A DNA stretch of 64,000 nt from Candidatus Doudnabacteria bacterium RIFCSPHIGHO2_01_FULL_46_14 (GCA_001779925.1 MFEK01000014.1:152168-216167); one strand, 5' to 3'; shown: positions 26,662 to 53,445, counted from the first letter of the stretch. Numbers and translations are program-made. Notes: generated by a model not told the origin, from the sequence alone.

Positions 26662-26733
26662 GGCAGTAGGTGGTAGCTGGTAGTCAGTAGGAAATTCCTA
26701 CAAGCTACAAGCTAATCCCTACAAGCTAAACAT

Positions 26734-27219
26734 ATGCCACGCAAAGCACGATCATATAAAAAACATAAGATAGACCCAGATCCGAAATACAATAATGTTA
26801 AGGTTGCCAAATTCATCAACAACATTATGGAACGCGGCAAAAAATCTGTCGCGCAAAAAATCGTTTATGAGTCTTTCAATTACATTAAGGAAAAAATGAG
26901 CACAGAGCCGCGCCAGGTTTTTGACACAGCCCTCAAAAACGTCAGTCCGATTTTAGAAGTAAAAAGCAGGCGCATCGGCGGCGCCAATTACCAGGTGCCG
27001 CTTGAGGTTACAGAGCCGAGAAAAACCACTCTCGGCATGCGTTGGTTGATAAAAGCTGCGCGTTCCCAAAAAGGCAAGCCAATGCATATCAAGCTTGGCG
27101 AAGAAATAATGTCTGCTTACAAGAACGAAGGTGCAGCTATCAAAAAGAAAGAAGATACTCACAAAATGGCAGAAGCGAATAGAGCGTTCGCGCATTTCGC
27201 AAGATTTCAAAGAAAATAA
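26734..27219 (+). CDS. rpsG: 30S ribosomal protein S7
   Basis: S7 motifs, including the N-terminus [10 protein letters not shown]. Confidence 0.95.
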
Positions 27220-27227
27220 TTAAACCT

Positions 27228-27285
27228 CTCTCCCGTCCCTCGGTAAGCTCGGGACGGCACTCTCTCCTCGTCAGGAGAGAGTAAT
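27228..27285. repeat. Double-hairpin GC-rich element between rpsG and fusA
   Basis: CCGTCCCTCGG-TAAGC-TCGGGACGG and CTCTCTCCTCG-TC-AGGAGAGAG. Confidence 0.5.
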
Positions 27286-27299
27286 AATGAATAATACTA

Positions 27300-29435
27300 A
27301 TGCCTCGCGAAATACCAATAGAACAAACACGTAATATAGGAATCATTGCTCATATTGATGCCGGAAAAACTACTGTAACTGAGGGCATTTTGTATAACAC
27401 GGGTCTTATACACACAATTGGTTCAGTGCACGAGGGCGAAACCACCACAGACTGGATGGAACAGGAGCGCGAGCGCGGCATCACTATAACCGCCGCGGCG
27501 GTGACCTGTTTTTGGACGCCGAAATGGAGCTCTTCGACGGGCTCAGAGCAGGCAAAGAAGCACAAGATCAACATCATTGATACCCCAGGCCACGTCGATT
27601 TTACGGTAGAGGTTGAACGTAGCCTTCGCGTGCTCGACGGCGCGGTCGTGGTTTTTGACGGCAAAATGGGCGTAGAGCCCCAGTCCGAGACTGTCTGGCG
27701 CCAGGCAGATAAATATCATGTGCCGCGCATGTGTTTCATCAACAAGATCAACCAGACCGGCGGCGATTTTTATAAATCACTCGATTCCATACACAAACGC
27801 TTGTCTGAGGACGCACACCCGATCCAGATCCCCATTGGTTTTGAAAAAGAAATAGTCGGCTTCGTGGACCTCGTGCAGATGAAAGGCTATACGTACAAAG
27901 ACTACACTGACAAAGAGTTCACCATTGTTGATATTCCCGCTGACATGAAAGAGAAAGCCGAAAAGTACCGCCACAACCTTTTGGAAAAAGTTTTGGAGAG
28001 CGATGACGTGCTCATGGAAAAATATTTGGCCGGCGGCGAGATCACAGAAAAAGAATTTCTCGGCGCGATCCGCAAAGCTACGCAGTCCGGTAAATTTTTT
28101 CCAGTACTCGGCGGAGACGGTCGCGGCATTATCGTTCAGACCATTCTCGATGGCGTAACCAATTTTTTACCAAACCCCATTGATAAGGGAGCGGTGAAGG
28201 GAATCGATCTGAACACTCAGGTCGAAATTGAACGCCAGCCGAACGACAGCGAGCCTTTCGCCGCGTTGGCTTTTAAAATCGCGACTGATCCGTTCGTGGG
28301 CAAGCTGGCGTTTTTCCGAGTTTATTCTGGCACGCTCGCCGCAGGAAGCTACGTGCTCAATGGTCGCTCGCAAAATAAAGAACGTGTGGGCCGCATCGTG
28401 CGTATGCACGCGGACAGCCGCGAGGAGATTAAAGAAGTTTTTGCCGGAGATATTGCCGCGCTTGTCGGTCCGAAAGATACTTTCACGGGCGACACGCTTT
28501 GTGACATTGATAAACCAGTAGCGCTGGAAAATATTACTTTCCCTGAGCCGGTCATTTCCCAAGCCATTGAACCAAAAACTAAAGCTGACCAGGAGAAAAT
28601 GGGTATTGCCCTGCAAAAACTCGGCGAAGAAGACCCGACTTTTCATATCAAATCTGACGAGGAAACCGGGCAGACGATTATTTCCGGAATGGGCGAGCTG
28701 CATCTCGAAATCATTGTGGACCGGATGAAGCGCGAGTTCAAGGTGGAGGCTAATGTGGGCGCTCCCCAAGTGGCTTACAAGGAAACCTTCCGCAAAACTG
28801 TGGAGGTCGAAGGCAAATACATTCGCCAAACCGGCGGGCGCGGACAATACGGACATGTTTGGTTGCGCCTTGAGCCGCAAGAGCCAGGTCTTGGCCGCGA
28901 GTTTGTGGACGAGATTGTTGGAGGCACTATTCCCAAAGAATATATTCCCGCGGTCGGCAAAGGCATTATGGAAGCCGCGGACAACGGCGTAATCGCCGGG
29001 TTTCCGGTGGTAGATTTCAAGGTCGCGTTATATGACGGCTCTTTCCATGAGGTTGATTCTTCAGAAATCGCTTTCAAAATCGCAGGCAGCAAAGCTTTCC
29101 AGGAAGGCATGAAGCGCGCGGGTCCTGTGATCCTGGAGCCGGTTATGAAGGTAGAGGTTATCACGCCCGAAGAATATATGGGCGACGTGATGGGAGACAT
29201 CTCTGCCAAGCGCGGTGAAATAAAAGAAATGGCAGATCGTGGCAAAAACAAAATCATCACCGCCACAGTGCCTCTGGGCAGTATGTTTGGCTATGCTACC
29301 ACGATAAGAAGCATGTCCCAGGGACAGGCTTCTTATGTCATGGAATTTTCTCATTACGCCGAAGTGCCAAAGAATGTGGCCGAGAAGATCATAGGCGAAG
29401 GTGCAAAGATCCGCGTCGGCCAGGTTGGAAATTAA
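27300..29435 (+). CDS. fusA: Elongation factor G
   Basis: The G-domain signature AHIDAGKTT plus full-length EF-G domains. Confidence 0.97.
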
Positions 29436-29446
29436 AATCCAGAGTT

Positions 29447-29773
29447 ATGGAACTGAAAAATCTCGTAAATATTTTACGATTCGGCGGACGGTTTATCATC
29501 ATTGATACTGATGGTAATCCCAAGGCAGTACTCATGAGTTATCAAGAGTTTGAAGAGCTTATGGTTGATAAGGTCGCCGGAAAACTGATTGACGAACTCA
29601 AAGAGGTAGAGCGAGTCAACGAAGAGATAACCCGCGCCCAGCTCACTGATCTGCGCGAAGAGGTACTCAAAGAAGATTTCGTGATCACCACCCAGCAAAC
29701 CATGGCCTTTTCTCAATATCCTGAAATCCGCGTTGAACCCCTGCCTGACAACATCGAAGAAGAATTTGATTAA
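29447..29773 (+). CDS. Phd/YefM-antitoxin-like small protein with an acidic C-terminal tail; no cognate toxin
   Basis: The N-terminal region GRFIIIDTDGNPKAVLMSYQEFEEL resembles the YefM/Phd fold signature. It starts 11 nt after the fusA stop. Confidence 0.45.
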   Translation: MELKNLVNILRFGGRFIIIDTDGNPKAVLMSYQEFEELMVDKVAGKLIDELKEVERVNEEITRAQLTDLREEVLKEDFVITTQQTMAFSQYPEIRVEPLPDNIEEEFD

Positions 29774-29776
29774 AGC

Positions 29777-29803
29777 AAAACCCGCCGATGAGGCGGGTTT
29801 TAT
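29777..29803 (+). terminator. Rho-independent terminator
   Basis: AAAACCCGCC-GATG-AGGCGGGTTTT. Confidence 0.8.
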
Positions 29804-29857
29804 CATGCCCTATTTGGTGTTATACTCTGATTTATGTTTCAGACCAAAGGAGGTCAA

Positions 29858-30337
29858 ATGCTCGAAGACATGCTTGCTAATATGGACGACGGATTTTTGA
29901 TCCGGCAAAGCACTGCCATCGGTTCGGATAGTATCGGATACATTGATGAAGCTCGCAGCTTTCTCACTGTGCGCGCGAGGCCTGTATTTATTTTCCTCAC
30001 ATTCATCAATTCTGTCCTTAACGAGGCTGGAGTTATGGGTTGTTTGGTGATGGTGACAATGCTGAGGCGACAGCAACAATCTACCACGGACAGCAATTGG
30101 CTTGAGGATATACTTCCGCGATTGGATCACGATACCTGCATTCGCTATGCTGGGGAAATCGGTCAAGATCTGAAGATGTTTTCCGAATCTGTAAGACAAT
30201 TGATAGACAACAGGGCGGGTGCATTCAAAGCAGTGCTATCATGCATGACTCAGGTTTTTGGCGATGAATTCCTTGTCGGTGCTTTGGTCATGCTCGAAAT
30301 GATCCGCCGTGCCGAAGCAATGAAGGTGAATACTTGA
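29858..30337 (+). CDS. Hypothetical protein (island gene B)
   Basis: AAAGGAGG RBS 6 nt upstream of the ATG; no recognised domain. Confidence 0.5.
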   Translation: MLEDMLANMDDGFLIRQSTAIGSDSIGYIDEARSFLTVRARPVFIFLTFINSVLNEAGVMGCLVMVTMLRRQQQSTTDSNWLEDILPRLDHDTCIRYAGEIGQDLKMFSESVRQLIDNRAGAFKAVLSCMTQVFGDEFLVGALVMLEMIRRAEAMKVNT

Positions 30338-30437
30338 AAACAATGGATTCATTGAACGCGGTGCCACAATGCCCGCGTTTTTTTCACCCTTGTACCGCAC
30401 TTTAACCGATCGCGTAAACTGCAGTATATCCTAGCTA

Positions 30438-30475
30438 CCCTGCCAGTAATCCTCGGCCGAGGATTACTGGCAGGG
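30438..30475. repeat. 38-bp perfect palindrome with no spacer: CCCTGCCAGTAATCCTCGG|CCGAGGATTACTGGCAGGG
   Basis: Read directly from the sequence: two exact 19-bp reverse-complement arms with no spacer. Confidence 0.9.
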
Positions 30476-30494
30476 TGTTCCTGCAAAATCTTGG

Positions 30495-30559
30495 GCAAAA
30501 TAAAAAAAGCTGTCTCGCGTCGTGCGAAACAGCTTTTTAAAAACGAATCAAACTCCTCC
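30495..30559. terminator. Bidirectional terminator module (copy 1 of a roughly 65-bp direct repeat)
   Basis: A-run, GCTGTCTCGCG...GCGAAACAGC hairpin and T-run. It is nearly identical to 31419-31481. Confidence 0.7.
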
Positions 30560-30568
30560 GTAAAAACG

Positions 30569-31330
30569 TCAACGCACAATACTTAAATCGTGCAGATACT
30601 GCTTGCGGAACTCGAATATTTCGCTTAGCCGCCTTCCATCAAACTCGCGGCCGAATCGGAACACTATGGTATCGTCGGGAATTTCGTAGGAATAGACTCC
30701 GTTGACACCTCCGCCCACTACTTTCCAGCCCTCCATCCGAGATTCATCTATCTGGTTTGAGTATACGAGGACTGAAAATTCGGTTCCTTTGAAGAAGCGG
30801 GTTCGCCCAAGTTCAGCTTCATCAGCTTTTTCTTCGCTCCAGAGCATAATGGAATTGGGGACCTGCGGGTCCTGACTTTTTTTAGGGTAGAACACGAGAG
30901 TTCCGTCCCTCCTCCATAGCAAAGGTTGATTTCGGTTAAGGCCAACGTTCAGAAGATTTGGCCATAGCGCGTGCAGTGTTACCACGATCTTGTCGTGATG
31001 TTCGGCGAACCATCCCGAGAGAATCATAGGAAACGAGAACATCATGTTTTCATTCTTTCCGACAGACTCGCGGAGCCTCTTGCTCGTCAAGGCGGCCATG
31101 ACTCCATTGTTTTCTTCTTCTGTTTTGCGCTGGCAGACGCACAAACAGCATATGATCATAGACGCAAGTGTGTCATGACCGTACGTTACCAATAGACTCA
31201 ACGCCCACGCCAGAGTTGTGAATCCTTGCGTTTGAACCGTTTCTCGTATTTTCCTGCTATATAGCATGGCTTCTCTCCTCCTTCGGAGATTCTTTATGTA
31301 ATTCTGTTCTGTAATCCGTCCAATGGACAT
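30569..31330 (-). CDS. Hypothetical protein (island gene C)
   Basis: The start was set at the ATG at 31330 (GAGGA RBS, plus an upstream TTGCTT-17-TATTAT promoter-like sequence). A strong-RBS ATG at 31267 is an alternative. The ORF-track start at 31483 reads through the terminator repeat. Confidence 0.5.
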   Translation of the reverse strand: MSIGRITEQNYIKNLRRRREAMLYSRKIRETVQTQGFTTLAWALSLLVTYGHDTLASMIICCLCVCQRKTEEENNGVMAALTSKRLRESVGKNENMMFSFPMILSGWFAEHHDKIVVTLHALWPNLLNVGLNRNQPLLWRRDGTLVFYPKKSQDPQVPNSIMLWSEEKADEAELGRTRFFKGTEFSVLVYSNQIDESRMEGWKVVGGGVNGVYSYEIPDDTIVFRFGREFDGRRLSEIFEFRKQYLHDLSIVR

Positions 31331-31418
31331 TGGATCGGTGTCCTCACTATCTTCAGAATTAACAAAATATAATACATCGTTTTTCCCAAAAAAGCAAGGG
31401 CACAGTTTTCTCGACTTT

Positions 31419-31481
31419 GGCAAAATAAAAAAGCTGTCTCGCGTCGTGCGAAACAGCTTTTTAAAACGATCAAACTCCTCC
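31419..31481. terminator. Bidirectional terminator module (copy 2)
   Basis: Same A-run/hairpin/T-run sequence as 30495-30559; it ends the minus-strand operon. Confidence 0.7.
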
Positions 31482-31492
31482 ATAGAGTTTTG

Positions 31493-31690
31493 TTAGTAAG
31501 CTCCGACCGGGTTTCGAAGCCAATCAGCGCACTCCTTTCGATCGCGGCCGATATAGATCTCAGCACCGTTGAGAGAATGATCAACGATCACGAACGTTCC
31601 GTCGGTCGCGTTTTCAATCGTGCATTCGAGTGCGTTCCAGTGAGCCTGAAACTCAGGTGGGTACACAAATCCGAATTGTTTGTTTTCCAT
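31493..31690 (-). CDS. Hypothetical small protein (island gene G)
   Basis: A 65-aa ORF 22 nt downstream of gene F with a GAGGT RBS. Confidence 0.4.
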   Translation of the reverse strand: MENKQFGFVYPPEFQAHWNALECTIENATDGTFVIVDHSLNGAEIYIGRDRKECADWLRNPVGAY

Positions 31691-31712
31691 TTCTGGACCT
31701 CGTTTTTTGGGA

Positions 31713-32021
31713 TTACCAAGGTTTGATTTTCCAGTCGTCGGCTTGACCGGCTGTGGTGGCGAGAAAAGCAGATTTGAAGCTTTCGTAGTCAGCCCGCGTT
31801 AGTTCATCGTGTTGCCCGTACCCATCGATCGTCAGCCTTTCCGGCACGGTCTCACCTTCTCTCACGAGAAAATGATGTTTGCTGTACAGGTAGTCCCGAA
31901 GAGCCGGAAACTCGCCGATAGCGCCATTCCTTAGACTACTGAGCGCAAATAAGGCATCGTTGAATTGCTTGCGGTCTCGGGCCTTTGCGTCCTGGTTATT
32001 CCAAAATCTTCTGGCGTTCAT
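31713..32021 (-). CDS. Hypothetical protein (island gene F)
   Basis: GAGGAGG RBS; a 102-aa ORF with no recognised domain. Confidence 0.5.
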   Translation of the reverse strand: MNARRFWNNQDAKARDRKQFNDALFALSSLRNGAIGEFPALRDYLYSKHHFLVREGETVPERLTIDGYGQHDELTRADYESFKSAFLATTAGQADDWKIKPW

Positions 32022-32052
32022 GTGTCCTCCTCTAGAAAATTAGGGATCGTCT

Positions 32053-32137
32053 TTCTCCCTTCAAAATCCACTTTAGAAAAATGAACTTGGAAGGTCATAG
32101 AGCGAACCGCACGAATTGCGCGATTCGCTCTGTTGGG
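32053..32137. promoter_or_regulatory. Repeated operator-like module, copy 1
   Basis: An IR CCCTTCAAA-N-TTGGAAGG plus the nested palindrome AGAGCGAACCGC-N-GCGATTCGCTCT at 32098-32130. Confidence 0.5.
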
Positions 32138-32139
32138 TA

Positions 32140-32457
32140 TCACTGCGTTGGCTGGCTCGAGAGAATTCTGATGCTCAAAAACAAGAACACGACCCAGACT
32201 CCGTAAAACTTTATCCGGAACCAGAAGGCGGCGTTTCGCAGATTCTGGATTTCCATCCAAGCGCGGCCTGGGTTGGCGACTATCCAAGCCTGGGCTGGAT
32301 CAGCGGCTGGATGGCAAAGTGCCGTGAGCGACCGGCGAAGTCGCCGCTGGAAATGCATTTCAAAGACGATCGTGGCTGTCATGGTCGTGACTGCGAGAGC
32401 CATGACGTACCACAAGATTCCCGAAAGCCGGATTACATCTTCCATTTTCTCCTCCAA
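32140..32457 (-). CDS. Hypothetical small membrane protein (island gene E)
   Basis: GGAGG RBS; central TM helices. Confidence 0.45.
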   Translation of the reverse strand: MEEKMEDVIRLSGILWYVMALAVTTMTATIVFEMHFQRRLRRSLTALCHPAADPAQAWIVANPGRAWMEIQNLRNAAFWFRIKFYGVWVVFLFLSIRILSSQPTQ

Positions 32458-32479
32458 ACAATTGAATTTAGGTTTGCTG

Positions 32480-32571
32480 TCCCTTCCAAACCCACCTTAC
32501 TTAAATTTAAAAGTTGAACTTGGAAGGGTCACAGAGCGAATCGCAAATTGCGCGATTCGCTCTGTTGTGTT
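32480..32571. promoter_or_regulatory. Repeated operator-like module, copy 2
   Basis: An IR CCCTTCCAAA-N30-TTGGAAGGG plus the palindrome AGAGCGAATCGC-AAATTGC-GCGATTCGCTCT at 32533-32563, which overlaps the gene D stop. Confidence 0.5.
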
Positions 32572-33049
32572 ACTTGGTCGTTCGAGACATGAGCGCGAAA
32601 ATTTTTCCTGAACCGTCGCTGTAAAGGCCGCTTTTCTTGTTGCTATAGTGCGCGGTCAGAATAACTTTTCGTTTTGCCGGGATCAGGGTTGGGATGCCGC
32701 TCGCGTATACCCAGCCGGTATTAGCTCCCAAAGGGTAATTTGTCCCATTAGCCATGATTTCGAAATTGAGCGTACGCTCATGGGCGCAGACCTGCAGCAA
32801 GACTGCAGCGTCAGCGTATTGAAAACCCACAGGGCGCATCCAATCTCTCTCCACCTCCCACATGGGCCGATGGAAACGGCAGATCAAAACTTCCCGATTC
32901 ACGACTCCATGTCCCCAGTTGCGGAAATGTCCGAAGTGCTGGTCATCGAAATAATCAAAGGTGTCGACGATCTCAGCTTTTAAGAGCATTTCAGGAATTG
33001 TAAGGTCATAGTCAACGTGGCCAAAAAGTCTTGCCAATTTTTCAATCAT
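32570..33049 (-). CDS. Hypothetical protein (island gene D)
   Basis: The start was set at the Met preceded by AAAGGAG; His/Trp-rich; no confident family. Confidence 0.45.
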   Translation of the reverse strand: MIEKLARLFGHVDYDLTIPEMLLKAEIVDTFDYFDDQHFGHFRNWGHGVVNREVLICRFHRPMWEVERDWMRPVGFQYADAAVLLQVCAHERTLNFEIMANGTNYPLGANTGWVYASGIPTLIPAKRKVILTAHYSNKKSGLYSDGSGKIFALMSRTTK

Positions 33050-33218
33050 TTGGAATCTCCTTTCAAATTCAGACTTCACAGGTGCACTATGCACCTCCGT
33101 CCAAACCCTATTCAGAAACTCCGCAAAAAAAGTTTCGAAGGTGCTGTTTTAGAATATCCTCATTTTCATCTATACTAGGTCATGATTTCCTCCTTTAGAA
33201 AATCTCGGGTTTTGCATT

Positions 33219-33262
33219 CTCCTTTCCAAATTCACTAAACTCTTGTAGCAAACTTGGAAGGA
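33219..33262. promoter_or_regulatory. Repeated operator-like module, copy 3 (IR part only)
   Basis: CCTTTCCAAA-N-ACTTGGAAGG upstream of gene D. Confidence 0.4.
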
Positions 33263-33514
33263 AAAACGACTTCCAATCCTAGCATATTTTTGCGGTTTTG
33301 TCGAGCGGGGCTCCATCCTTCATAATCTCCCCCTTATCATGGGGGAGAGAACAGCGGAACATCAAAAAACCCGCCTAATTGGCGGATTGGGATTTTTGGG
33401 CACAGAGTATTATTTTACTCCTTTTTGGCGGTATTGTCAATACTCGAGTTGCTGCTTTTGGCTTAGATAAGCGAAAAGGGAACTTTATTTTGGCTAGGGT
33501 TAGCCAAAAGATGC

Positions 33515-33543
33515 CTGGATTCCGGATCAAGTCCGGAATGACA
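33515..33543. repeat. 29-bp hairpin repeat (copy 2)
   Basis: Identical to 19133-19161. Confidence 0.8.
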
Positions 33544-33670
33544 GGAATTAGGGGGAGAAAATAGCGGAAATCCTTGACTCTGCTGTTCGGAACTGCTATA
33601 TTTTGACAGTTAGCCTGAATTTAATTATAATCTTTAAACAATATTAATCTTTTAGGAGTTACATAAACGC

Positions 33671-34861
33671 ATGGCTGAAGGGAAATTTTCACGAAATAAG
33701 CCCCACATCAACGTTGGAACCATTGGACACGTTGACCACGGCAAGACCACGCTGACCGCAGCGATTACGCATTATTTGGTGTCCAAGGGCATTGCCGGAA
33801 ACAAAGAGCGCTCTTATGACTCCATTGATAACGCGCCGGAAGAAAAGGCTCGCGGCATCACTATCAACACCTCGCACGTCGAATACGAGAGCGAAAAGCG
33901 CCACTACGCGCACGTTGACGCTCCGGGACATGCTGATTACATCAAAAACATGATCACTGGCGCGGCCCAAATGGACGGCGCGGTTTTGGTCGTGTCTGCC
34001 GCTGACGGCCCAATGCCGCAGACTCGCGAACACATTCTGCTTGCGAGACAGGTAGGCGTGCCGCACATCATTGTGTTCCTCAACAAAGTAGACATGGTTG
34101 ATGATAAAGAACTTATTGACCTCGTAGAAGAAGAGGTCCGCGATTTGCTTAACAAATATCAGTACCCGGGTAAAGACACTCCGATCATCCGCGGCTCTGC
34201 TCTCAAAGCTGTTGAAAACGATGCTGCCGGCCTCGAATCTATCGGCAAGCTTGTCGAAACCATGGACACTTATTTCCCAGAGCCGACACGTGACACTGAC
34301 AAGCCGTTCCTCATGCCGATCGAAGACATTTTTTCCATTGAAGGACGCGGCACTGTGGTTACCGGAAGAATCGAGCGTGGCATGATCAAGCTTAACGATG
34401 AGGTGGAAATCATCGGTCTCAAAGACACACAGAAGACTGTGGTGACCGGCATTGAAATGTTCAACAAATCCCTGGACGAAGGCAGAGCTGGCGACAACGC
34501 CGGCATCCTTATCCGCGGCACCAAAAAAGAAGACGTGGAACGAGGCCAGGTTTTGGCCAAGCCCGGTTCAATCACTCCGCATACCGAGTTCGAAGCTGAG
34601 GTATACATTCTGACCAAAGAAGAAGGCGGCAGACATACAGCATTCTTTTCCGGTTACAAACCGCAGTTTTATATCCGCACCACTGATGTTACCGGTGATG
34701 TTACCTTGGCTGCCGGCAAAGAAATGGTTATGCCTGGCGATACAGTTAACCTTACAATCAAGCTCATCAGCCCGGTTGCTTTGGAAGAGAAATCCAAATT
34801 CGCCATCCGCGAAGGCGGGCACACTGTCGGCGCGGGCGTTGTAACCAAGATTCTGAAATAA
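33671..34861 (+). CDS. tuf: Elongation factor Tu
   Basis: [17 protein letters not shown] and NKVD motifs; full-length EF-Tu. Confidence 0.98.
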
Positions 34862-34865
34862 CACA

Positions 34866-35204
34866 GTGAGCGCCAAGGCAAAAATAGCAACAGAAGAGGC
34901 AGTTCAGCGGATTCGGATTAAGATCCGGGCATATGACCACAAACTCATAGATCAAAGCGCAAAGCAGATTGTGGATACCGCGCGCAAAAGCGGTGCCTCG
35001 ATCGCAGGACCAGTGCCGTTGCCGACCGAAAAAACCAAATACACGGTTCTGAAATCCACGTTTGTGCACAAAGATTCCCGAGATCAGTATGAGATGCGCA
35101 TTCATAAACGTCTTATAGATATTCTTTCTCCAACGCAAAAAACTATTGATTCGCTAACAAACCTGAATCTCCCGGCGGGCGTGGATGTAGAGATAAAAAT
35201 GTAG
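34866..35204 (+). CDS. rpsJ: 30S ribosomal protein S10
   Basis: The [16 protein letters not shown] motif; GTG start. Confidence 0.95.
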
Positions 35205-35401
35205 TAAGCTTGACGAATTACGAATAGGTGCGAATATATAATCCGTACCAAAGTAAGTAGGTTCTAAGAAGATTTAGTTTAGAAAACTCTTCTTCTCAGA
35301 TAACGATTTACTGGTGATAAAATCTGACATTCAAGATTTATTGCTGGTCGATCATGACCAGCTTTTTCGTAAATTCATAAACATTCGTTATTCCTAAAAC
35401 T

Positions 35402-35965
35402 ATGGATAAATATATCCAAGCAAAAAAAGTAAATATGACCCAGGTGTGGACAGCAGAAGGCAAGGTTGTGCCAGTGACGGTGTTGCACGTTGACGCAGGC
35501 TCTGAAATTTCTGATCTGCAACCAGGAACAGTCATTCACATCAGCGGGCGTAGCCGCGGCCGCGGTTTTGCCGGGCCGGTAAAGCGGCATGGGTTTCATG
35601 GTGCTCCGGCATCCCACGGACATGACCATCCTCGAGCTGTCGGGTCTATTGGTAACCGCTTTCCCCAGCACACTAGGCCTGGGATGCGCATGGCCGGCCG
35701 CATGGGCGGGAAGAACGCGACTGTAAAAAATTCGATTGTCATTACCGTGGATGTGGAAAACAAGCTCATTGTTGTTAAAGGCGGAGTGCCGGGGCACCCG
35801 GAGAGTAAGGTTAAAATCGGCGTAACTGCAGAAAAAAAGACTGCTCCGGAGATAGTGAAATACGTGACAGCACCGACCAGCCAAACCTTTCTCACTGAAA
35901 CCAAAGCTCAGACTGAGGTTCCAGAGAGTCCGAAAGCTCAAGAAGGAGAAGCAAATGCAAGCTAA
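35402..35965 (+). CDS. rplC: 50S ribosomal protein L3
   Basis: KVNMTQVW...GKVVPVTV, matching the L3 N-terminus. Confidence 0.9.
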   Translation: MDKYIQAKKVNMTQVWTAEGKVVPVTVLHVDAGSEISDLQPGTVIHISGRSRGRGFAGPVKRHGFHGAPASHGHDHPRAVGSIGNRFPQHTRPGMRMAGRMGGKNATVKNSIVITVDVENKLIVVKGGVPGHPESKVKIGVTAEKKTAPEIVKYVTAPTSQTFLTETKAQTEVPESPKAQEGEANAS

Positions 35966-36620
35966 GGTTTATAGTCAATCAGGTGAAGATAAAGGCACGG
36001 TCGAGCTGAACTCGAAGATCTTTGGCTTGGAAAAAATTAAACCAGAGGTCGTGCATCAGACAGTAACGAGCTTACTGTCTTCGAGGCGTAATGTAGTAGC
36101 CAGCACTAAAACCAAAGGCGAGGTCAGAGGCGGCGGCAAAAAACCGCACCAGCAAAAAGGCACGGGACGGGCGCGCGCCGGTTCGATTCGTTCTCCATTG
36201 TGGCGCGGCGGCGGTATCACTTTCGGACCGCGGGCCAATCGTAATTTTGAGCGCAAGATTAATAAAAAAGAGAAGATTCTCACATTGTTTTCTGTTTTGA
36301 GCGATAAAGCCAAAAGCGGACAGCTCGTGGTTCTTGATGACCTCGCACTTTCAGCCCCGAAAACCAAGGAGCTGGCAGGTAAGCTCAAAGACTTGCAGGC
36401 CAAAATTCCGGCTCTCGGCCGTTCACTTACTATTGTTATTTCCGAGAAGCAAAAGGATTTGGTCAGAGCAGGAAAAAATCTGCCGAACATTAATATATTA
36501 TCGGCTTCGAGCCTGAATATTTTACAGCTTTTGTCAGCGCAGGGAGTTGTGGTCATGCAGGACGCGCTCGCTGGCATTGAAAAAACTTATTTAAGGAATA
36601 AGGCAGCTAAGGGTAATTAG
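35955..36620 (+). CDS. rplD: 50S ribosomal protein L4
   Basis: L4 family similarity and the expected position after rplC. Confidence 0.9.
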   Translation: MQAKVYSQSGEDKGTVELNSKIFGLEKIKPEVVHQTVTSLLSSRRNVVASTKTKGEVRGGGKKPHQQKGTGRARAGSIRSPLWRGGGITFGPRANRNFERKINKKEKILTLFSVLSDKAKSGQLVVLDDLALSAPKTKELAGKLKDLQAKIPALGRSLTIVISEKQKDLVRAGKNLPNINILSASSLNILQLLSAQGVVVMQDALAGIEKTYLRNKAAKGN

Positions 36621-44029: not shown

Positions 44030-44053
44030 TTCTTACCTCATAATTTTAAAGCT

Positions 44054-44491
44054 ATGTTCAATCTTTCAAACCTCAAGCCGAAAATAAAAAAACCTAAACA
44101 GGTGCGGCGCGGGCGGGGACTCGGCAGCGGACGCGGTGCATATTCTGGACGCGGTATCAAGGGGCAGAAGGCCCGCACAGGCGGCAATATCAAGCCTGGT
44201 TTTGAAGGCGGTCGTCAGCCAATGATCCGGCAGATGCCGAAAATCAAAGGCTTCCGCTCAATGCATAGTAAATCCCAGACTGTGGATTTGGCCTTGCTGG
44301 CTAAAGCGTTTGCGGACGGAGCGCTCGTTTCCCCTAAAACTCTTGAAAGCAAAGGACTCATCCGATCTGCTGGAAAACCAATCAAAATATTGGGCAAGAC
44401 GGAATTAACGCGGCGTTTTCAGTTCGAAGGCGTACGCTTTTCTGAATCTGCAAAAGCCGCGATAACTAAGGCTGGCGGAACAATCAAATAG
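44054..44491 (+). CDS. rplO: 50S ribosomal protein L15; no L30 gene lies between rpsE and rplO
   Basis: [17 protein letters not shown], matching L15. Confidence 0.9.
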
Positions 44492-44501
44492 TAGAATACT
44501 A

Positions 44502-45785
44502 ATGATCAAAAAGTTTTTTCAAATCTGGCGACTGGCTGACCTGAGGAAAAAGATCCTTATGGTTCTATTTTTACTCGCCGCGACCAGGGTGCTAGCCGCG
44601 ATCCCGATTCCCGGGGTCAACGCGGGCGCTCTTCAGCAGTTTTTTGCGCAAAACCAGCTTTTTGGGCTTTTGGATATTTTTTCCGGCGGCGGTCTTTCCA
44701 ATTTTTCCATTGCCATGCTTGGCGTGGGGCCCTACATTACCGCCTCGATCATAATGCAGCTTTTGGCCATCATTGTGCCGTCACTGGCAGAACTGCAAAA
44801 GGAAGGAGAACAGGGCCGCGCCAAGGTTAACCAGTACACGCGTTATCTTGCAGTGCCTTTGGCTATTCTCCAGGGCTTCGGCACGATTTCGCTCATTGCT
44901 AGAGGCGCGGGCGGTGGGCCGAGAGTTCTGGGCCTTTTAACGCCGATTGACTGGGCAGTGATTCTTGTCTCCATTACTGCCGGTACCATGATCCTGATGT
45001 GGATCGGCGAGCTTATTACCGAATATGGCATTGGCAACGGACTGTCACTGATAATTTTCGCAGGTATAGTTGCACAAGTTCCGACATTTATTTCTCAGAC
45101 TGCTTTGACCTTCAACCCTTCTCTACTCCCTACAATAATCGGTTTTGTGTTGATTAGCGCGGTCGTGATTCTGGCTGTGGTGGTGATGACAGAAGCCACG
45201 CGCAATATTCCGATTTCGTACGCCAAACGCGTGCGCGGCAACAAGCTTTATGGGGGCGTTGATACGCATCTGCCGATCCGACTCAATACTGCGGGCGTTA
45301 TCCCTATAATTTTTGCGATTTCTGTTTTGCTGTTTCCGGGAGTGATCGCCAATTTTTTGGTTAACGCCAAGACTCCGGCGATCGCGGATTTTGCCCAGAA
45401 AATTACCGCGCTTTTTCAAAACCAGACTTTTTACGGCATCGCATATTTTGTATTGGTCATTGCTTTTACCTATTTTTATACTGCGGTTATTTTTAACCCT
45501 CAGGATATTTCAGAAAATATTCAAAAACAGGGCGGGTTTATCCCGGGATTGCGTCCCGGACAGCAGACTGCCGCGTTTTTGTACCGGGTTTTGAATCGCA
45601 TTACTCTGGCGGGAGCAATTTTTTTGGGACTTATAGCTGTCCTGCCGTTTCTGATGCAGGTTGTGACCAAGAGCCAAGCCCTGACCCTGGGCGGAACTTC
45701 CTTGCTCATCGTGGTCGCGGTTGTAATCGAAACTGTCAAACAAATCGAATCCCAGCTCGTCATGCGCGATTACGAGGGGTTCTAG
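44502..45785 (+). CDS. secY: Preprotein translocase subunit SecY
   Basis: Ten TM helices and SecY-conserved segments (GVNAGALQ..., SQLVMRDYEGF). Confidence 0.95.
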   Translation: MIKKFFQIWRLADLRKKILMVLFLLAATRVLAAIPIPGVNAGALQQFFAQNQLFGLLDIFSGGGLSNFSIAMLGVGPYITASIIMQLLAIIVPSLAELQKEGEQGRAKVNQYTRYLAVPLAILQGFGTISLIARGAGGGPRVLGLLTPIDWAVILVSITAGTMILMWIGELITEYGIGNGLSLIIFAGIVAQVPTFISQTALTFNPSLLPTIIGFVLISAVVILAVVVMTEATRNIPISYAKRVRGNKLYGGVDTHLPIRLNTAGVIPIIFAISVLLFPGVIANFLVNAKTPAIADFAQKITALFQNQTFYGIAYFVLVIAFTYFYTAVIFNPQDISENIQKQGGFIPGLRPGQQTAAFLYRVLNRITLAGAIFLGLIAVLPFLMQVVTKSQALTLGGTSLLIVVAVVIETVKQIESQLVMRDYEGF

Positions 45786-45812
45786 GCCAAGCGCCAACAA
45801 ATAACCGATAAC

Positions 45813-45838
45813 AAACCCGCCAACCATGTTTGGCGGGT
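45813..45838 (+). terminator. Rho-independent terminator after secY
   Basis: AACCCGCCAA-CCATG-TTTGGCGGGTT. Confidence 0.7.
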
Positions 45839-46021
45839 TAAATTAGTATAAGAAGTTAGTCGCAAGGCCAATGAGGTTGCTTTCAGCTAGCCCCCGGGAA
45901 GCTTTTCATTTTCAATAGTCATCAGACGGCGCGAATGACACATTCTACGCCAATTTGAATTTGACCGTCAACATCTTAACCACGGTTGAGGTGTTTGTTT
46001 TTTCACGGTATAATTGTACGC

Positions 46022-46591
46022 ATGGACAAGCCTTTAAATTTAATAATTCTCGGACCGCAAGGATCAGGCAAGGGAACGCAGGCGCAGATGCTGGCCAAGC
46101 GATTCAATTTGGCATTTCTGGGTTCTGGTGATTTACTGCGCGAGATTGCCAAAACCGACACACTGCTAGGGCGAGAAGTGCACCAAACGATTAATGTCGA
46201 AGGGCGCCACATGCGATCCGAGGTTATCTCCCAGGTGATAAAGGAAAAATTGCATGCACTGCCCAGAGATCAAGGCGTGATCCTCGAAAGCTACCCGCGC
46301 AACCTTGAGCAGTACGAAGAATTTAAAAAATTCTGGCCGGAAACCGAACGGGGCGATTATCTTATTCTCTATATTCATCTCTCGGAAGAGGAATCGATCA
46401 AAAGAATGATGCTCCGCAAGCGGCTTGACGATACAGATGACACTATCCATAAACGTTTGGAATTGTTTAATAGCCTGACAAAGCCTATGATTGAAGAAAT
46501 GGACAAGCAGAATCGAGTGATCCGCATAGACGGCGCGCCGTCAATCGAGCAGGTCAATGAGGAAATATTGTCGAAACTAAATGAAAAATAA
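46022..46591 (+). CDS. adk: Adenylate kinase
   Basis: The start was set at MDKPLNLIILGPQGSGKGTQ (P-loop). A TTGAGG-17-TATAAT promoter ends 8 nt before the ATG, so the mRNA is probably leaderless or nearly so. Confidence 0.85.
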   Translation: MDKPLNLIILGPQGSGKGTQAQMLAKRFNLAFLGSGDLLREIAKTDTLLGREVHQTINVEGRHMRSEVISQVIKEKLHALPRDQGVILESYPRNLEQYEEFKKFWPETERGDYLILYIHLSEEESIKRMMLRKRLDDTDDTIHKRLELFNSLTKPMIEEMDKQNRVIRIDGAPSIEQVNEEILSKLNEK

Positions 46592-47156
46592 AAACTCAAT
46601 TACTTTAGTGCTTTTAGGCGACATTGCGGCAGGCAAGGGCACGCAGGCCAAGATTTTAGCAAAAACATACAAGCTGAAATATATCGGAGTGGGCGATTTT
46701 TCCCGCAAAATGGCTCGCAAAAACTCCAGCTTTACTCGAATCAACAAAGGAGTGCTGGCGCCCTCGGATGCGGTGCAGAGCTATCTCAAATCTCAAATTT
46801 CAAAACTCAAAACTAATCAAGGCGTGCTCGTGGACGGCGGAAAGATGCCGGCTGAGGCAAGGCTCATCCGAGATTTGTTGCGAAAGCAGAAGCGCAGAGT
46901 CTTAGTAATTTATCTGAACCTTTCTCATAAAGAAAGTTTTCGACGCACCGCGGGGCGCCTCAAACACCAGGGCCGTGCAGACGATACGCCGCAAGCCCTC
47001 CGAAACCGTATCAAATATTACCGGCTGGTGTATTCCAAGACCGTGAGATTTTGGCAGAAACAGGGGGTATTACGAAGAGTAAGCGGTCTAGGTACTGTCG
47101 AGTCGGCGACTCAAAGATTGAAAGGAATCATAAATAAATATTGTGGCGATAATTAA
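46581..47156 (+). CDS. Adenylate-kinase-like paralog (divergent second P-loop NMP kinase)
   Basis: Motifs LLGDIAAGKGTQ, VDGGKMP and ADDTPQALRNR; in tandem with and overlapping adk. Confidence 0.7.
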   Translation: MKNKNSITLVLLGDIAAGKGTQAKILAKTYKLKYIGVGDFSRKMARKNSSFTRINKGVLAPSDAVQSYLKSQISKLKTNQGVLVDGGKMPAEARLIRDLLRKQKRRVLVIYLNLSHKESFRRTAGRLKHQGRADDTPQALRNRIKYYRLVYSKTVRFWQKQGVLRRVSGLGTVESATQRLKGIINKYCGDN

Positions 47157-47910
47157 AACCGCGAAAGAAATTGAGCTGCTCGCTGAAGGCGGCAAAATCC
47201 TCGCCGATATTTTACATACAGTGGCCGCGGCTGTAAAACCGGGCGTATCGACTCTGGATTTGGATCATCTTGCCCGCGAGGAAATGAAAAAATTCGGGGT
47301 AAAGCCGGCTTTCGAAGGTTATCGGATGGGCAACCAGGGGCCTAAATACCCTGCCGTGCTTTGCTCTTCAGTAGATCACGAGGTTGTACATGGGATACCT
47401 AGCCATAAGAAAATTTTAAAGGAAGGGCAAATAATAGGGCTTGATCTTGGAATAATTCATAAAGAACTATATACAGATTCGGCGCTATCAGTGGCTGTTG
47501 GTAAAGCGAGCAAGGAGAATGAAAAATTACTGCGGGTCACACGTGAAGCGTTAGAGGCAGGAATTGCCCAGGTAAGGCCTGGAAATAAAATCGGGGACAT
47601 AGCACATGCGATTCAATCGTGTGCAAAAAAAGCGGGATTTGCCGTGATTCGGGATCTCATCGGGCACGGTGTGGGACATGAATTGCATGAAAAACCAGAT
47701 GTGCCAAACTATGGCCGTGCAGGTACGCTTGAAGAACTAATGCCCGGTATGGTCATTGCCATCGAGCCAATGTTTACGAGAGGGGATTGGCGCATTACTT
47801 TTTTGGACGATGGTTGGACAGTGGTCACAGCTGACGGTAGTCCTTCAGCGCATTTTGAACATACAGTGGCAGTTACAACAGCAGGTCATAAGGTCTTGAC
47901 AGCAAAATAA
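47143..47910 (+). CDS. map: Type I methionine aminopeptidase
   Basis: MetAP pita-bread motifs, including the GHGVGHELHE metal-site context; GTG start. Confidence 0.9.
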   Translation: MAIIKTAKEIELLAEGGKILADILHTVAAAVKPGVSTLDLDHLAREEMKKFGVKPAFEGYRMGNQGPKYPAVLCSSVDHEVVHGIPSHKKILKEGQIIGLDLGIIHKELYTDSALSVAVGKASKENEKLLRVTREALEAGIAQVRPGNKIGDIAHAIQSCAKKAGFAVIRDLIGHGVGHELHEKPDVPNYGRAGTLEELMPGMVIAIEPMFTRGDWRITFLDDGWTVVTADGSPSAHFEHTVAVTTAGHKVLTAK

Positions 47911-50855: not shown

Positions 50856-51692
50856 GTGAAGCACTTCAAACTTTTCGTGATACTAGTCTTTATCCTAGTT
50901 GGTTTTACCCTCAAGGACCGTTTCACTTTGCCCAAGGTGGAATATCTTGGCGCTCGGATAGATGATCTGGAAAAACGGATTTCCACGTCTGATCCTTTGC
51001 GCGCTGGTGGAGATTCCCCAGCCGCTTTTCTCACACGCGCCGGGATCATAAAACACACGAATGACCATCGCCAGGAAAACGGTTTGGCGATATTGCTGGG
51101 AAATACAAAACTCAATGAAGCTGCCAGCAAAAAGGTTCAGGATATGTTTGCTGGCCAGTATTTTGCCCATGTTTCGCCGGAAGGCAAACAAGCTTCGGAT
51201 TTGGCGACATTTGTTGGTTATGAATACATTGCCATAGGCGAGAACCTCGCGCTTGGTAATTTTGAAAATGACCAGGTTCTTGTCCAGGCTTGGATGGATT
51301 CCCCAGGACACCGAGCAAACATTTTAGATAAAAAATTTCAAGAGATTGGGGTGGCGGCATCCAAAGGAATTTTTGAAGGAAAGAGCACATGGCTGGCGGT
51401 GCAGATTTTTGGTTTATCCAAATCGGCTTGCCCAACACCAAACTCTGACCTAAAAACCAGAATCGATAATAACGAAAAAACCTTAAAAGAAATACAGACA
51501 CAGCTCGTAGAGTTGAAAAACGAAATTGAAGCGAGTGGATGGTCGCCGCGCCGCAGGGACGAATACAATCAAAAAGTCAAAGAGTACAACGATCTGGCGG
51601 AGAAATATAATTCTCTTTTGGAAATGACCAAAAATTTAATCGAACAGTACAACGAACAGGCAAAGGCGTTTAATTCTTGCGTAAAAAGGTAG
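50856..51692 (+). CDS. CAP/SCP/PR-1-domain secreted protein with a C-terminal coiled coil
   Basis: N-terminal signal/TM segment; CAP motifs GHRANIL and FQEIGVA. Confidence 0.7.
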   Translation: MKHFKLFVILVFILVGFTLKDRFTLPKVEYLGARIDDLEKRISTSDPLRAGGDSPAAFLTRAGIIKHTNDHRQENGLAILLGNTKLNEAASKKVQDMFAGQYFAHVSPEGKQASDLATFVGYEYIAIGENLALGNFENDQVLVQAWMDSPGHRANILDKKFQEIGVAASKGIFEGKSTWLAVQIFGLSKSACPTPNSDLKTRIDNNEKTLKEIQTQLVELKNEIEASGWSPRRRDEYNQKVKEYNDLAEKYNSLLEMTKNLIEQYNEQAKAFNSCVKR

Positions 51693-51825
51693 TCAGATTT
51701 TGACATTGCGCGCACGCCAAACCAGCGAGATTCGTCGTTGCGCGGTACATGGTGGAATCTGATTCCCGAGCATCTCCATTTTTTTGAGTTTTTTGAGTTT
51801 TGTGTTATAGTTTATTTTACTTGTT

Positions 51826-53028
51826 ATGATAGAAAACGAAACAAAACCGTCGGAAAACCCAATAAAAAAACCCATTAATCCAAGACAACTCACGGCCTTG
51901 ATCGGTATAGTTGCGGGTTTTGCAGGTGGGGTTATCGGCTCGCTCTATTTGGCCCCGTGGTACCAGCAGAATATTCTTCACCAGATGCCAGGCCAGTCTG
52001 TCGAGCGCAAGCAGGTAGTAATTGACGAGCAATCAGCGATTATCAGCGCGGTAGAAAAGGTGAACCCGAGCGTGGTTTCGATAGTTATCAGCAAGGATTT
52101 GCCCGAGTTTGAACAGTTCGGCTCTCCGTTCGGATTTTTTCGGGCGCCATCGGGCGAAATTCAGGAACAACAGATCGGCGCTGGCAGTGGATTTATTATT
52201 ACTGCAGACGGGATGATCGTGACCAACAAGCATGTGGTTTCCGATACAGAAGCAGAATACACAGTTGTAACCAACGATAACAAAAAATATCCAGCCCGCG
52301 TGGTCGCGACCGATCCCGTTAACGATGTGGCAGTAGTCAAGATTGAGGTAAAAAATTTGCCGGTTGTGACCTTTGGCGATTCAGACAAACTCAAACTCGG
52401 GCAAGGAGTGGTGGCCATAGGAAATGCGCTCGGCGAGTTTCAGAATACCGTTACCTCAGGCGTGGTTTCGGGAATCGGTCGCAATATTACAGCGGGCGGC
52501 GGCGCGCAGACAGAGAATCTCTTGGAGGTCATCCAGACTGACGCGGCCATCAATCCAGGCAATTCCGGAGGGCCGCTTGCAGATATGGATGGCAATGTCA
52601 TTGGGGTGAACTCGGCGGTCAGCATGCAAGGGCAGCTTATTGGTTTTGCGATTCCCATAAACCAAGTGAAAAAAGCTGTGGATGATATCAAGCAGTTTGG
52701 AAAAGTGCGCCGGGCGTTTCTTGGCGTACGGTATGTCATTGTGACTGAATCTGTGGCTCGCGAAGAAAATCTGTCGGTAGATTATGGAGCGCTTATCCTT
52801 CGCGGGCAAAACCCACGCCAGCCCGGGGTCGTGCCGGACAGCCCGGCGGACAAATCAGGCCTCAGGGAAAGAGATATCATTTTAGAGGTTGATGCTCAGA
52901 AAATTACCGCAGACAATACGCTTTCCGAGATTATGAGGGACTACAATCCGGGAGACAGAGCGACTCTGAAAATCAGAAGAGAAGCCAGGGAAATGTCTGT
53001 GGCAGTAATTTTGGGAGATGCTGAGTAG
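51826..53028 (+). CDS. htrA: HtrA/DegP-family serine protease with a PDZ domain
   Basis: Catalytic context TNKHVV, D..., GNSGGPL; a C-terminal PDZ domain. Confidence 0.9.
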   Translation: MIENETKPSENPIKKPINPRQLTALIGIVAGFAGGVIGSLYLAPWYQQNILHQMPGQSVERKQVVIDEQSAIISAVEKVNPSVVSIVISKDLPEFEQFGSPFGFFRAPSGEIQEQQIGAGSGFIITADGMIVTNKHVVSDTEAEYTVVTNDNKKYPARVVATDPVNDVAVVKIEVKNLPVVTFGDSDKLKLGQGVVAIGNALGEFQNTVTSGVVSGIGRNITAGGGAQTENLLEVIQTDAAINPGNSGGPLADMDGNVIGVNSAVSMQGQLIGFAIPINQVKKAVDDIKQFGKVRRAFLGVRYVIVTESVAREENLSVDYGALILRGQNPRQPGVVPDSPADKSGLRERDIILEVDAQKITADNTLSEIMRDYNPGDRATLKIRREAREMSVAVILGDAE

Positions 53029-53052
53029 TTTTAAGAAACTTATAACTAATAA

Positions 53053-53445
53053 TTGATAACTTATAACTTGGGCAGGATATTAGCTTTAGATTACGGCACG
53101 AAAAGAATAGGGATCGCAGTTACCGATGAAACAAAAACCATAAGCATCCCCAAACCTTATATTTTAAATGCTGAAAAAGAAAAATTAAATGAATTCGTCA
53201 AAGAAAATGAAGTGGAAGAAATTTTGCTCGGGTTGCCATTGGGCCTCTCCGGCCAGGAAACTGAATCAACGAAAAAAGTGCGCGAGTTTGGAGCTTGGCT
53301 GAAAGAAACAATCAATTTACCGGTGAGACTTATTGACGAAAGACTGACTACTCAGGAAATAAGAAGAACAGAAACAAATAAAGAATTAATTGACAGTTTG
53401 GTGGCGCAAAAAATGCTGGAAAGATATTTGGAAAAAATAAGATGA
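53053..53445 (+). CDS. ruvX: Holliday-junction resolvase-like YqgF/RuvX
   Basis: ALDYGTKRIGIAV, matching the YqgF N-terminal motif. Confidence 0.8.
   Translation: MITYNLGRILALDYGTKRIGIAVTDETKTISIPKPYILNAEKEKLNEFVKENEVEEILLGLPLGLSGQETESTKKVREFGAWLKETINLPVRLIDERLTTQEIRRTETNKELIDSLVAQKMLERYLEKIR

Follow-up and report, generated by a model that had tools for sequence, protein, structure and literature searches.

What are the short structured repeats that stand directly before start codons in the ribosomal-protein operon of a bacterium of the Candidate Phyla Radiation (CPR, or Patescibacteria), whose genomes are very small (roughly 1 Mb) and whose genes are tightly packed? The question arises from a 64,000-nucleotide stretch of Candidatus Doudnabacteria bacterium RIFCSPHIGHO2_01_FULL_46_14 (MFEK01000014.1:152168-216167; hereafter the window), in which an earlier inspection without database searches, the sequence-only reading, had described four repeat families before ribosomal-protein genes and ruvX and had suggested that they could be operators of translation, sites of RNase processing or relics of insertions. 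The best explanation is that repeats colonised the intercistronic gaps of the Doudnabacteria str-S10-spc cluster. More specifically, we give a probability of about one half to the account that each of the four families consists of copies from one of two classes of small palindromic repeats without coding function, similar to repetitive extragenic palindromes (REP) or miniature inverted-repeat transposable elements (MITEs) and tolerated in operon gaps through a self-closing stem. Class A is family 1; class B comprises families 2-4 and further copies, and consists of hairpins or single arms of degenerate 7-nt words. Both classes are common in CPR genomes.

The coordinates previously given for three family-1 copies before rpsS, rplN and rplX are correct, and two additional copies (W4 and a variant) were found:

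37946-38047, plus strand: copy W1, an exact fill of the rplB-rpsS gap, reading stop codon TAA, TTAACCCACCAAAATTT...AAATTTAGGCGGGTAA, ATG.
40503-40588, plus strand: copy W2 in the rpsQ-rplN gap, with arms as in W1, an unrelated interior and an alternative local hairpin CCCACC...GGTGGG.
40961-41062, plus strand: copy W3 in the rplN-rplX gap.
22828-22935, minus strand: copy W4, 3' of rpmB (L28), adjoining the ATG of an unknown 396-aa open reading frame (ORF), with the 5' arm ACCCTCC.
6825-6892, plus strand: variant with arms TTTACCCCATTAGATA...TATCTAACGGGGTAA, whose 3' end adjoins the ATG of a PAP2-family gene.

The window contains the exact 19-mer AAATTTAGGCGGGTAAATG four times, where 0.03 occurrences would be expected. 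W1 and W3 are 89% identical over 108 nt (alignment z = 45.6 against shuffles), and W2 has only the arms in common with the other copies. In the minimum-free-energy folds of all four family-1 copies, ACCC(A/T)CC-AAAAUUU is predicted to pair with AAAUUU-A-GGCGGGU, in agreement with the earlier proposal that ACCCACC can pair with the GGCGGGT near the Shine-Dalgarno sequence, and in the variant at 6825-6892 the pairing is kept by compensatory changes in both arms (ATTTACCCCATTAGATA...TATCTAACGGGGTAAAT); the stop codon of the ORF upstream of this variant lies inside its 5' arm. W4 is separated from the rpmB stop codon by 25 nt. A short hairpin made of variant arms alone, ATACCCCGTTTAACGGGGTAT, is located just past rpmB (22941-22961, minus strand), and arm-like sequences TTTACCCCG and TTTACCCGCC stand on either side of a tRNA-Leu (10495-10645, plus strand), where the tRNA flanks can pair (duplex of -21 kcal/mol).

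The copies of class B in the window are as follows:

37032-37108, plus strand: family 2 hairpin of heptamer words, GCGAnnn four times and nnnTCGC four times, in the rplW-rplB gap.
43126-43199, plus strand: family 2 heptamer-word hairpin in the rplF-rplR gap.
26662-26733, plus strand: family 3 heptamer-word hairpin, GTAGnnn / nnnCTAC, in the rpsL-rpsG gap, with a folding z-score of -5.05 and the start codon included in the stem base.
42511-42576, plus strand: family 3 heptamer-word hairpin in the rpsH-rplF gap.
38378-38416, plus strand: family 4 tract of CTnATAA heptamers before rplV, poor in G, a single arm with no predicted fold.
53033-53067, plus strand: family 4 tract before ruvX, adjoining TTG 53068.
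23215-23290, minus strand: heptamer-word hairpin of CAGAACT words 5' of rpmB, similar to an insert between S17 and L14 in a relative (L009, below).
44030-44053, plus strand: short tract of CTTAATT words at the rpsE-rplO junction, within a period-7 segment at 44005-44053.

Against shuffles, the alignment z-scores are 16.7 for the two copies of family 2, 8.9 for those of family 3 and 14.4 for those of family 4 (38378-38413 against 53033-53068, 33 of 36 positions identical), while the cross-family control, family 2 against family 3, gave 0.1. Together with the 19-mer count, these scores place all four families before the named genes far above chance. For family 4 the description has to be amended in one respect: both copies are real, and the one before ruvX adjoins no ATG. 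Judging from the translated N-terminus MGRILALDYGTKRIG, ruvX probably starts with the TTG at 53068.

What unites families 2-4 is their period, a feature on which the sequence-only reading had not remarked. Autocorrelation at a lag of 7 nt is significant in all three, in the hairpin upstream of rpmB and in the rpsE-rplO tract (z = 3.2-5.7) and is absent from family 1. The window holds nine period-7 segments against at most one in shuffles, and none at periods 5, 6 or 8. Among fetched loci, 128 period-7 tracts were counted in 675 kb of CPR sequence and 46 in 1310 kb of other bacteria, a roughly fivefold difference in density, and in the non-CPR bacteria periods 6 and 9 dominate. Many of the CPR tracts are word-hairpins, for example (TATGAAG)n ... 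(CATAATT)n. Two adenylate-kinase-like ORFs stand in tandem, and the second holds an in-frame tract, (ATCTCAA)(ATCTCAA)(ATTTCAA)(AACTCAA) at 46776-46823, which encodes ...YLKSQISKLKTNQ..., so heptamer repeats are present in coding sequence too. GC-rich perfect palindromes, CCCCTCCTCATGAGGAGGGG and CTCCCCCTCATGAGGGGGAG, were also seen in intergenic positions (17631-17731, 33313-33348 and 62077-62179), one of them 5' of the tuf promoter.

Family 1 extends far beyond the window. An exact-pattern scan of Joint Genome Institute (JGI) metagenomes (ACCCNCCAAAATTT, a gap of 50-80 nt, AAATTTAGGCGGG) found the arm pattern in more than 116 contigs. The following figures refer to the matches listed, which comprise at least 119 copies of 82-107 nt each, 104 after removal of duplicates and 108 when the four window copies are included. 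The layout of class A is about 100 nt (86-108) with conserved inverted arms TTcACCCnCCaAAATTT...AAATTTaGGCGGGTAA and a variable interior. The ends, TT(C)ACCC(N)CC(A)AAATTT ... AAATTT(A)GGCGGGTAA, are imperfect terminal inverted repeats of 15-20 nt in all copies and enclose an AT-rich, fast-evolving interior of 53-75 nt. Most copies have ACCCGCC, the perfect complement of GGCGGGT; the window forms ACCCACC and ACCCTCC are in the minority. Most interiors resemble no other (71 of 108 are singletons), and genome-specific subfamilies exist, such as eight near-identical copies on or matching the 320-kb contig Ga0082335_1000067. The hosts include at least Doudnabacteria and Candidatus Taylorbacteria, and the family therefore covers at least two candidate phyla.

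Neither the genes nor the sites are particular to one kind of operon. Copies of family 1 occupy the ribosomal junctions L3-L4, L36-S13, S13-S11, rpoA-L17, S12-S7, L13-S9, S8-L6 and nusG-L11, and they are equally found 5' of mreB, metG, clpB, ruvA, smc, gyrB and tRNAs; S13-S11 can carry two tandem elements, and nested copies occur as well. TAAATG follows the element directly in 29 of the 119 copies. Between co-directional genes, 39 copies are in sense and 15 in antisense orientation. Directly inward of the fixed arms, three base pairs are formed in 61-90% of copies, compared with 39-72% after shuffling, and co-vary. Alternative versions of the whole arm exist, all closed by ACCC...GGGT (ACCCCGTTAGAAATC/GATTTCTAACGGGGT, ACCCAGCACCTATTT/AAATAGGTGCTGGGT and ACCCCCTCACTCGAA/TTCGAGTGAGGGGGT); a search for arm versions gave 284 matches in 0.9 Mb of CPR sequence, none in block-shuffled sequence and one palindrome in 1.3 Mb of other bacteria. 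In 739 kb of loci the arms occurred only as pairs 50-100 nt apart, with no single arms and no arms around large cargo. The 19-mer AAATTTAGGCGGGTAAATG was not found in viral contigs. Rfam scans, at the gathering threshold and at E <= 5, returned tRNAs and chance-level matches only and no family for these elements, and a literature search on the arm sequences and on MITE, REP or heptamer repeats in CPR found nothing relevant. The element families thus appear to be undescribed, although their kind, palindromic intergenic repeats, is a familiar one.

Comparison of relatives shows that the inserts come and go. Operon spacers were mapped in seven relatives, which like all fetched loci carry three-digit handles here. 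Loci L001-L007 and L215 are 99.98-100% identical to the window and are therefore uninformative on insertion polymorphism. A profile search of genome contigs with an L22 alignment was too generic in its patterns and returned mostly Streptomyces and Bdellovibrio; L012 alone was useful, and the others served as negative controls. One relative from the same sample with 66% L22 identity (L213) is fully compact, with at most 15 nt at every junction measured. Two relatives with 72% L22 identity are expanded, each in its own way. L009 carries family 1 at two junctions, L2-S19 and L14-L24, and apparently at a third, L23-L2, its contig beginning there within the element. Its S17-L14 junction holds a CAGAACT word-hairpin and its S14-S8 junction a family-1 variant. 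In L008, word-hairpins occupy L2-S19, S3-L16 and S17-L14, and tracts of GATAA heptamers occupy S19-L22 and L22-S3. In L210, a different repeat of about 160 nt is present at three junctions of the S10 operon (8502-8706, 10577-10780 and 11456-11616), and a further family, GTCATCCTGA...GGATGAAGGATCC, is common to L210 (9544-9644) and L212 (9035-9138). By eye, a motif in the window, TCCGGATCAAGTCCGGAATGACA (about 19130-19165 and 33520-33560), is loosely similar to this L210/L212 family.

Elements are thus present, absent or exchanged for another family at orthologous junctions. By eye and unscored, W1 and W3 are closer to each other than to their positional counterparts in L009, and the two copies of L009 likewise resemble each other most; this within-genome resemblance points to concerted evolution or re-insertion. 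The insertion-relic interpretation is favoured because the repeats are multicopy, not specific to ribosomal-protein genes, swapped at the same junctions and widespread in candidate phyla. The sequence-only reading had named absence from close relatives and lack of conserved structure as the observations that would tell against it: the former is seen at some junctions, and the structure is not lost, the stem being kept by compensatory changes.

A single spacer departs from this turnover:

35205-35401, plus strand: rpsJ-rplC (S10-L3) spacer, with variable word arms CGAAT / ATTCG around a conserved core RNA whose end is a terminator-like hairpin at 35343-35362.

It is the sole conserved spacer, 129-540 nt long in all relatives in which it was measurable. 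Its core RNA (window 35240-35385) is conserved in four species and reads AGGTTCT..., AGATAACGATTTACCGGTAGTGAAAATCT, then CTGGTCGATCnnGACCAG and a T run; variable word arms bracket it in the window and in L008. The core has no match in Rfam; that it serves the L3-L4... genes as an attenuator-type leader is possible.

How could such inserts be borne between essential genes? In this operon each insert takes up the whole space between the stop codon of one cistron and the start codon of the next, and its ends are complementary. We compared the first with the last 30 nt, stop and start codons included, of 34 expanded spacers (at least 60 nt). Own ends pair with a mean of -13.4 kcal/mol, compared with -6.8 kcal/mol for pairing with the ends of other spacers (Mann-Whitney p = 2e-12), and own-end pairing lies past the 5th percentile in 20 of the 34. 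Since own ends pair far better than foreign ones, each insert is a self-closing module that bridges stop to start. The genes downstream have no canonical Shine-Dalgarno (SD) sequence; AGGAGG is used elsewhere in the genome. In compact relatives the SD sequences for L24, L18 and L22 lie within the end of the upstream gene, and for L24 and L18 the window still has this SD, 5' of the insert; in the case of rplN-rplX it is the ancestral GAGGT in the last part of rplN.

On the polycistronic mRNA, such an insert would be looped out as a closed hairpin that brings stop and start codons side by side and hides about positions -1 to -20. A ribosome ending the upstream cistron would open the outer stem and re-initiate, and if translational coupling works through the closing helix, only self-closing inserts would survive in an essential operon. 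The copies may have spread, within one CPR genome and from one to another, via a transposase or by recombination and gene conversion; both routes are possible. Three other devices were tried and rejected. A split ribosome-binding site suits rplN-rplX and partly rplF-rplR, and several junctions lack an upstream SD. A mini-ORF relay, in which an ATG ORF of 12-25 codons ends at a TAG or TAA of the 3' arm, occurs in window copies and in copies from L009 and L197 and is not general, mini-ORFs of at least 10 codons being present in 26 of 108 copies against 12 +/- 3.5 in shuffled ones. An internal promoter, TTCACC - 17 nt - TATGAT, can be read in W1 and W3; a -10-like hexamer stands at that spacing in 14 of 96 copies only, with no positional enrichment.

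Several observations count against tolerated mobile palindromes as the explanation. The folding z-scores of the four whole family-1 elements are weak (-1.7 to +0.1); the overall folding energy is unremarkable because the interior is AT-rich. There is no clear sign of target-site duplication: in the best frame, 29 of 106 copies have a flank repeat of 2 nt, where 15.2 would be expected (z = 5), which is 27% only and is confounded by related copies. No transposase domain was detected in the ten window ORFs tested, and no autonomous partner with the same ends occurs in 739 kb of loci, whole genomes not having been searched. Coupling is not a general rule, because about half of the ATG-adjoining copies listed have no upstream gene within a few nucleotides, and W4 itself is 25 nt away from one. 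Finally, the arm sequence is conserved, beyond what pairing demands, across candidate phyla and around orthologous tRNAs, which fits recognition by a factor better than passive tolerance. An RNA-level role for the elements, in masking, coupling or processing, would be plausible.

At least 12 copies contain a complete tRNA as their interior (Ala-CGC, Pro-CGG, Arg-CCG, Glu-CUC and Met). For most of them, a second, tRNA-like gene for the same type of amino acid encloses the whole element. The enclosed element occupies the anticodon loop where the type is Ala, Pro or Glu, the D loop in L118 and, in L108, the place where variable region and T stem meet. Such tRNA-in-tRNA genes occur in at least five species:

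L160, 6051-6201, minus strand: nested tRNA genes.
L133, 626-775, minus strand: nested tRNA genes.
L199, 812-957, plus strand: nested tRNA genes.
L190, 461-607, minus strand: nested tRNA genes.
L203, about 2340-2530, plus strand: nested tRNA genes.
L187, L118 and L108: nested tRNA genes.

The outer tRNA-like genes are missed by standard tRNA finders. Once the element is removed in silico, flanks of the Ala type from four species form a cloverleaf with an invariant G3:U70 and compensatory double changes in 6 of 20 pairs, and ARAGORN then recognises a tRNA in as many as 7 of 10 outer genes. The residual loops measure 10-12 nt. No single splice rule that we tried for the nested elements brings the anticodon loop of the Ala, Glu and Pro cases back to 7 nt. 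Group I introns were also considered and rejected: an Rfam scan of six loci gave tRNA matches only, and the elements are only about 100 nt long and consist of arms plus a tRNA. ARAGORN found no tRNA remnants in the non-tRNA interiors of six loci. Separately, the window has a tRNA at 18009-18082 (Rfam, 58.6 bits) for which ARAGORN gives no anticodon ("cc"); it is CCA/Trp-like by eye and may have an unusual anticodon loop.

These tRNAs keep alive the strongest alternative, possible if unlikely in our estimation, that the elements are RNA processing or "punctuation" signals. An endoribonuclease, RNase III or one specific to CPR and possibly acting together with ligation, would recognise the closing helix and cut there, free tRNAs and split or trim cistrons, perhaps yielding short-leader or leaderless mRNAs. 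The stem of about 20 bp with fixed mismatches has the size of an RNase III substrate, its arm sequence is conserved across candidate phyla, and in the tRNA-bearing copies the arm helix is stacked on the acceptor stem; the lack of SD sequences in the downstream genes is also in line with it. That the outer tRNA genes, once the insert is deleted in silico, show cloverleaf covariation and are called by ARAGORN suggests that the insert is handled at the RNA level. On the other hand, the elements are missing from the same junctions in close relatives, so no junction requires them, both orientations occur, the residual loops are 10-12 nt long, no one splice rule yields a canonical loop for the Ala, Glu and Pro cases, and the elements are not group I introns.

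A bolder version of this idea, which we consider improbable, takes family-1-type arms as the recognition helix of an undescribed CPR system that excises the bracketed insert from RNA, an intron-like or "punctuation" cassette. If true, excision would account jointly for the siting from stop to start between essential cistrons, the bracketing of tRNAs and the tolerance of elements inside the loops of tRNA genes whose cloverleaf stems still co-vary.

It is very unlikely that the elements act at the DNA level only, as uptake signals, attC-like recombination sites or sites for nucleoid proteins, with the RNA hairpin incidental. Such sites would explain why the arm sequence is kept across lineages and why a whole element can be inverted relative to identical flanks (L136 compared with L174), and TTAGGC of the 3' arm resembles the attC R' core GTTRRRY. 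However, arms are never single and always paired 50-100 nt apart, orientation is biased towards sense, alternative arms keep their pairing by compensatory change, and ribosomal-protein genes are not cassettes.

Dedicated cis-regulatory ribosomal-protein leaders, whether protein-bound operators or thermosensor-like hairpins that mask the SD, hardly come into consideration and have already been largely refuted by the comparison of relatives: the 3' arm AGGCGGGTAAATG does hold a weak SD-like run by the start codon, masked by an anti-SD-like arm, and stem mismatches are conserved, but the operator proposal finds no support, since relatives have gained, lost and exchanged inserts, the elements also precede other kinds of gene, families can replace one another at one junction, no Rfam family matches, and the only truly conserved leader is that of the S10-L3 spacer.

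We therefore return to palindromic repeats tolerated through self-closure as the preferred account, and to the operon that holds them:

26242-29435, plus strand: rpsL-rpsG-fusA.
29436-33670, several genes on the minus strand: about 4.2 kb of mostly unannotatable genes between fusA and tuf.
33671-47910, plus strand: tuf-rpsJ-rplC...secY-adk-map.

The gene names S19, L14, L24, L2, L18, S7, L6 and L22 are supported by Pfam on a public Rifle aquifer scaffold identical to the window, and the window S19 protein is the NCBI entry OGE78272.1, which carries the annotation Candidatus Doudnabacteria. In a promoter scan of the window, perfect 12/12 matches to the sigma-70 consensus occurred only before rpsL (26040-26068) and tuf (33603-33631), and because these are the sole such matches the repeats are taken to sit within polycistronic units. 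In the spacers of families 1-4 there was no plus-strand terminator call, and promoter-like matches were only weak (9/12), in W1 and W3; the S10-L3 hairpin is the only plus-strand terminator-like site among these spacers. The segment between fusA and tuf includes a Phd/YefM-antitoxin-like ORF (29447-29773) and a 304-aa ORF without a Pfam match, which is flanked by two 96%-identical terminator-like hairpins (30498-30542 and 31422-31466); the segment may be an inserted island. No rRNA gene was found in the window or the fetched loci.

Gene callers on the identical contig shorten L2 (217 aa instead of 278 aa from ATG 37109; 37109-37945), L16 (84 instead of 137 aa; 39662-40075) and L15 (89 instead of 145 aa; 44054-44491), and S10, S14 and L18 were missed by public gene calls in some records of L001/L002. 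In practical terms, the elements mislead gene callers (L2, L16 and L15) and hide tRNA genes from finders, and they can serve as strain-typing markers. Of wider importance is that at least 13 hairpin inserts lie in the most essential and most highly expressed operon here. If they are tolerated by self-closing, they would offer a natural test of translational coupling and of how much selfish DNA a minimal genome can bear. Should they be processed or excised instead, they would mark a novel level of RNA maturation in a major and little understood branch of the bacteria, the case for which is made by the same arms occurring in at least two candidate phyla, around and inside tRNA genes.

Among known systems, the leaders of ribosomal-protein operons (S8/spc, L4/S10 and S7/str, as in Rfam) are position-specific and conserved and mimic rRNA binding sites. 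The elements described here are likewise structured RNAs beside ribosomal-protein starts in the str, S10 and spc clusters, but they are not conserved, not specific to ribosomal-protein genes and have no Rfam model; only the S10-L3 core is leader-like. The short tandem heptamer repeats (STRR) of heterocystous cyanobacteria are intergenic 7-nt tandem repeats of no known function that sometimes form inverted arrays. Class B belongs to another phylum and uses other words, and its heptamers are degenerate and usually have a complementary arm, which makes a stop-to-start hairpin.

The closest parallels to class A are found among extragenic palindromes. REP elements and their doublets, the REPINs (REP and bacterial interspersed mosaic elements in E. 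coli; REPINs in Pseudomonas, moved by the REP-associated tyrosine transposases, RAYTs), are short and often lie between cistrons of an operon. A REPIN has two conserved inverted ends and about 70 nt of less conserved spacer, about 110 nt in all; its hairpin transcripts affect mRNA stability or translation, and subfamilies are genome-specific. Family 1 similarly has two inverted conserved units at a spacing of 53-80 nt, a predicted closing stem and a mostly unpaired interior. It differs in that its sequence is unrelated, its arms have no hairpin of their own and contain only the 6-nt palindrome AAATTT, no RAYT was seen in the 64 kb of genome, and its elements adjoin start codons, may carry a tRNA and have an arm sequence common to candidate phyla. 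MITEs such as Correia elements of Neisseria, ERIC and RUP are about 100-150 bp long, intergenic and co-transcribed, with terminal inverted repeats, long hairpins and strain polymorphism, and Correia hairpins are cut by RNase III. Terminal inverted repeats, similar copies within a genome and varying presence at orthologous junctions are shared with them, while the interiors are not conserved between copies, target-site duplication is not clear and no parent insertion sequence is known.

For the arrangement between cistrons there are phage precedents. At the RNase III sites of T7 and the "split ribosome-binding site" of T4 genes 38/25, an intercistronic hairpin loops out RNA or marks a cleavage. 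The rplN-rplX insert, which lies downstream of the retained ancestral SD GAGGT, would fit this design; the split-site geometry suits some junctions only, the spacing would be 12-16 nt or more, and several junctions lack an SD upstream. Group I introns of Patescibacteria interrupt the anticodon loops of CPR tRNAs and are missed by standard tRNA finders (PMC13011429). The elements nested in tRNA genes of L160, L133, L203 and others differ from these introns in being about 100 nt long, in showing neither a group I fold nor an Rfam match, in containing a whole second tRNA and in having the same arms as the intercistronic elements.

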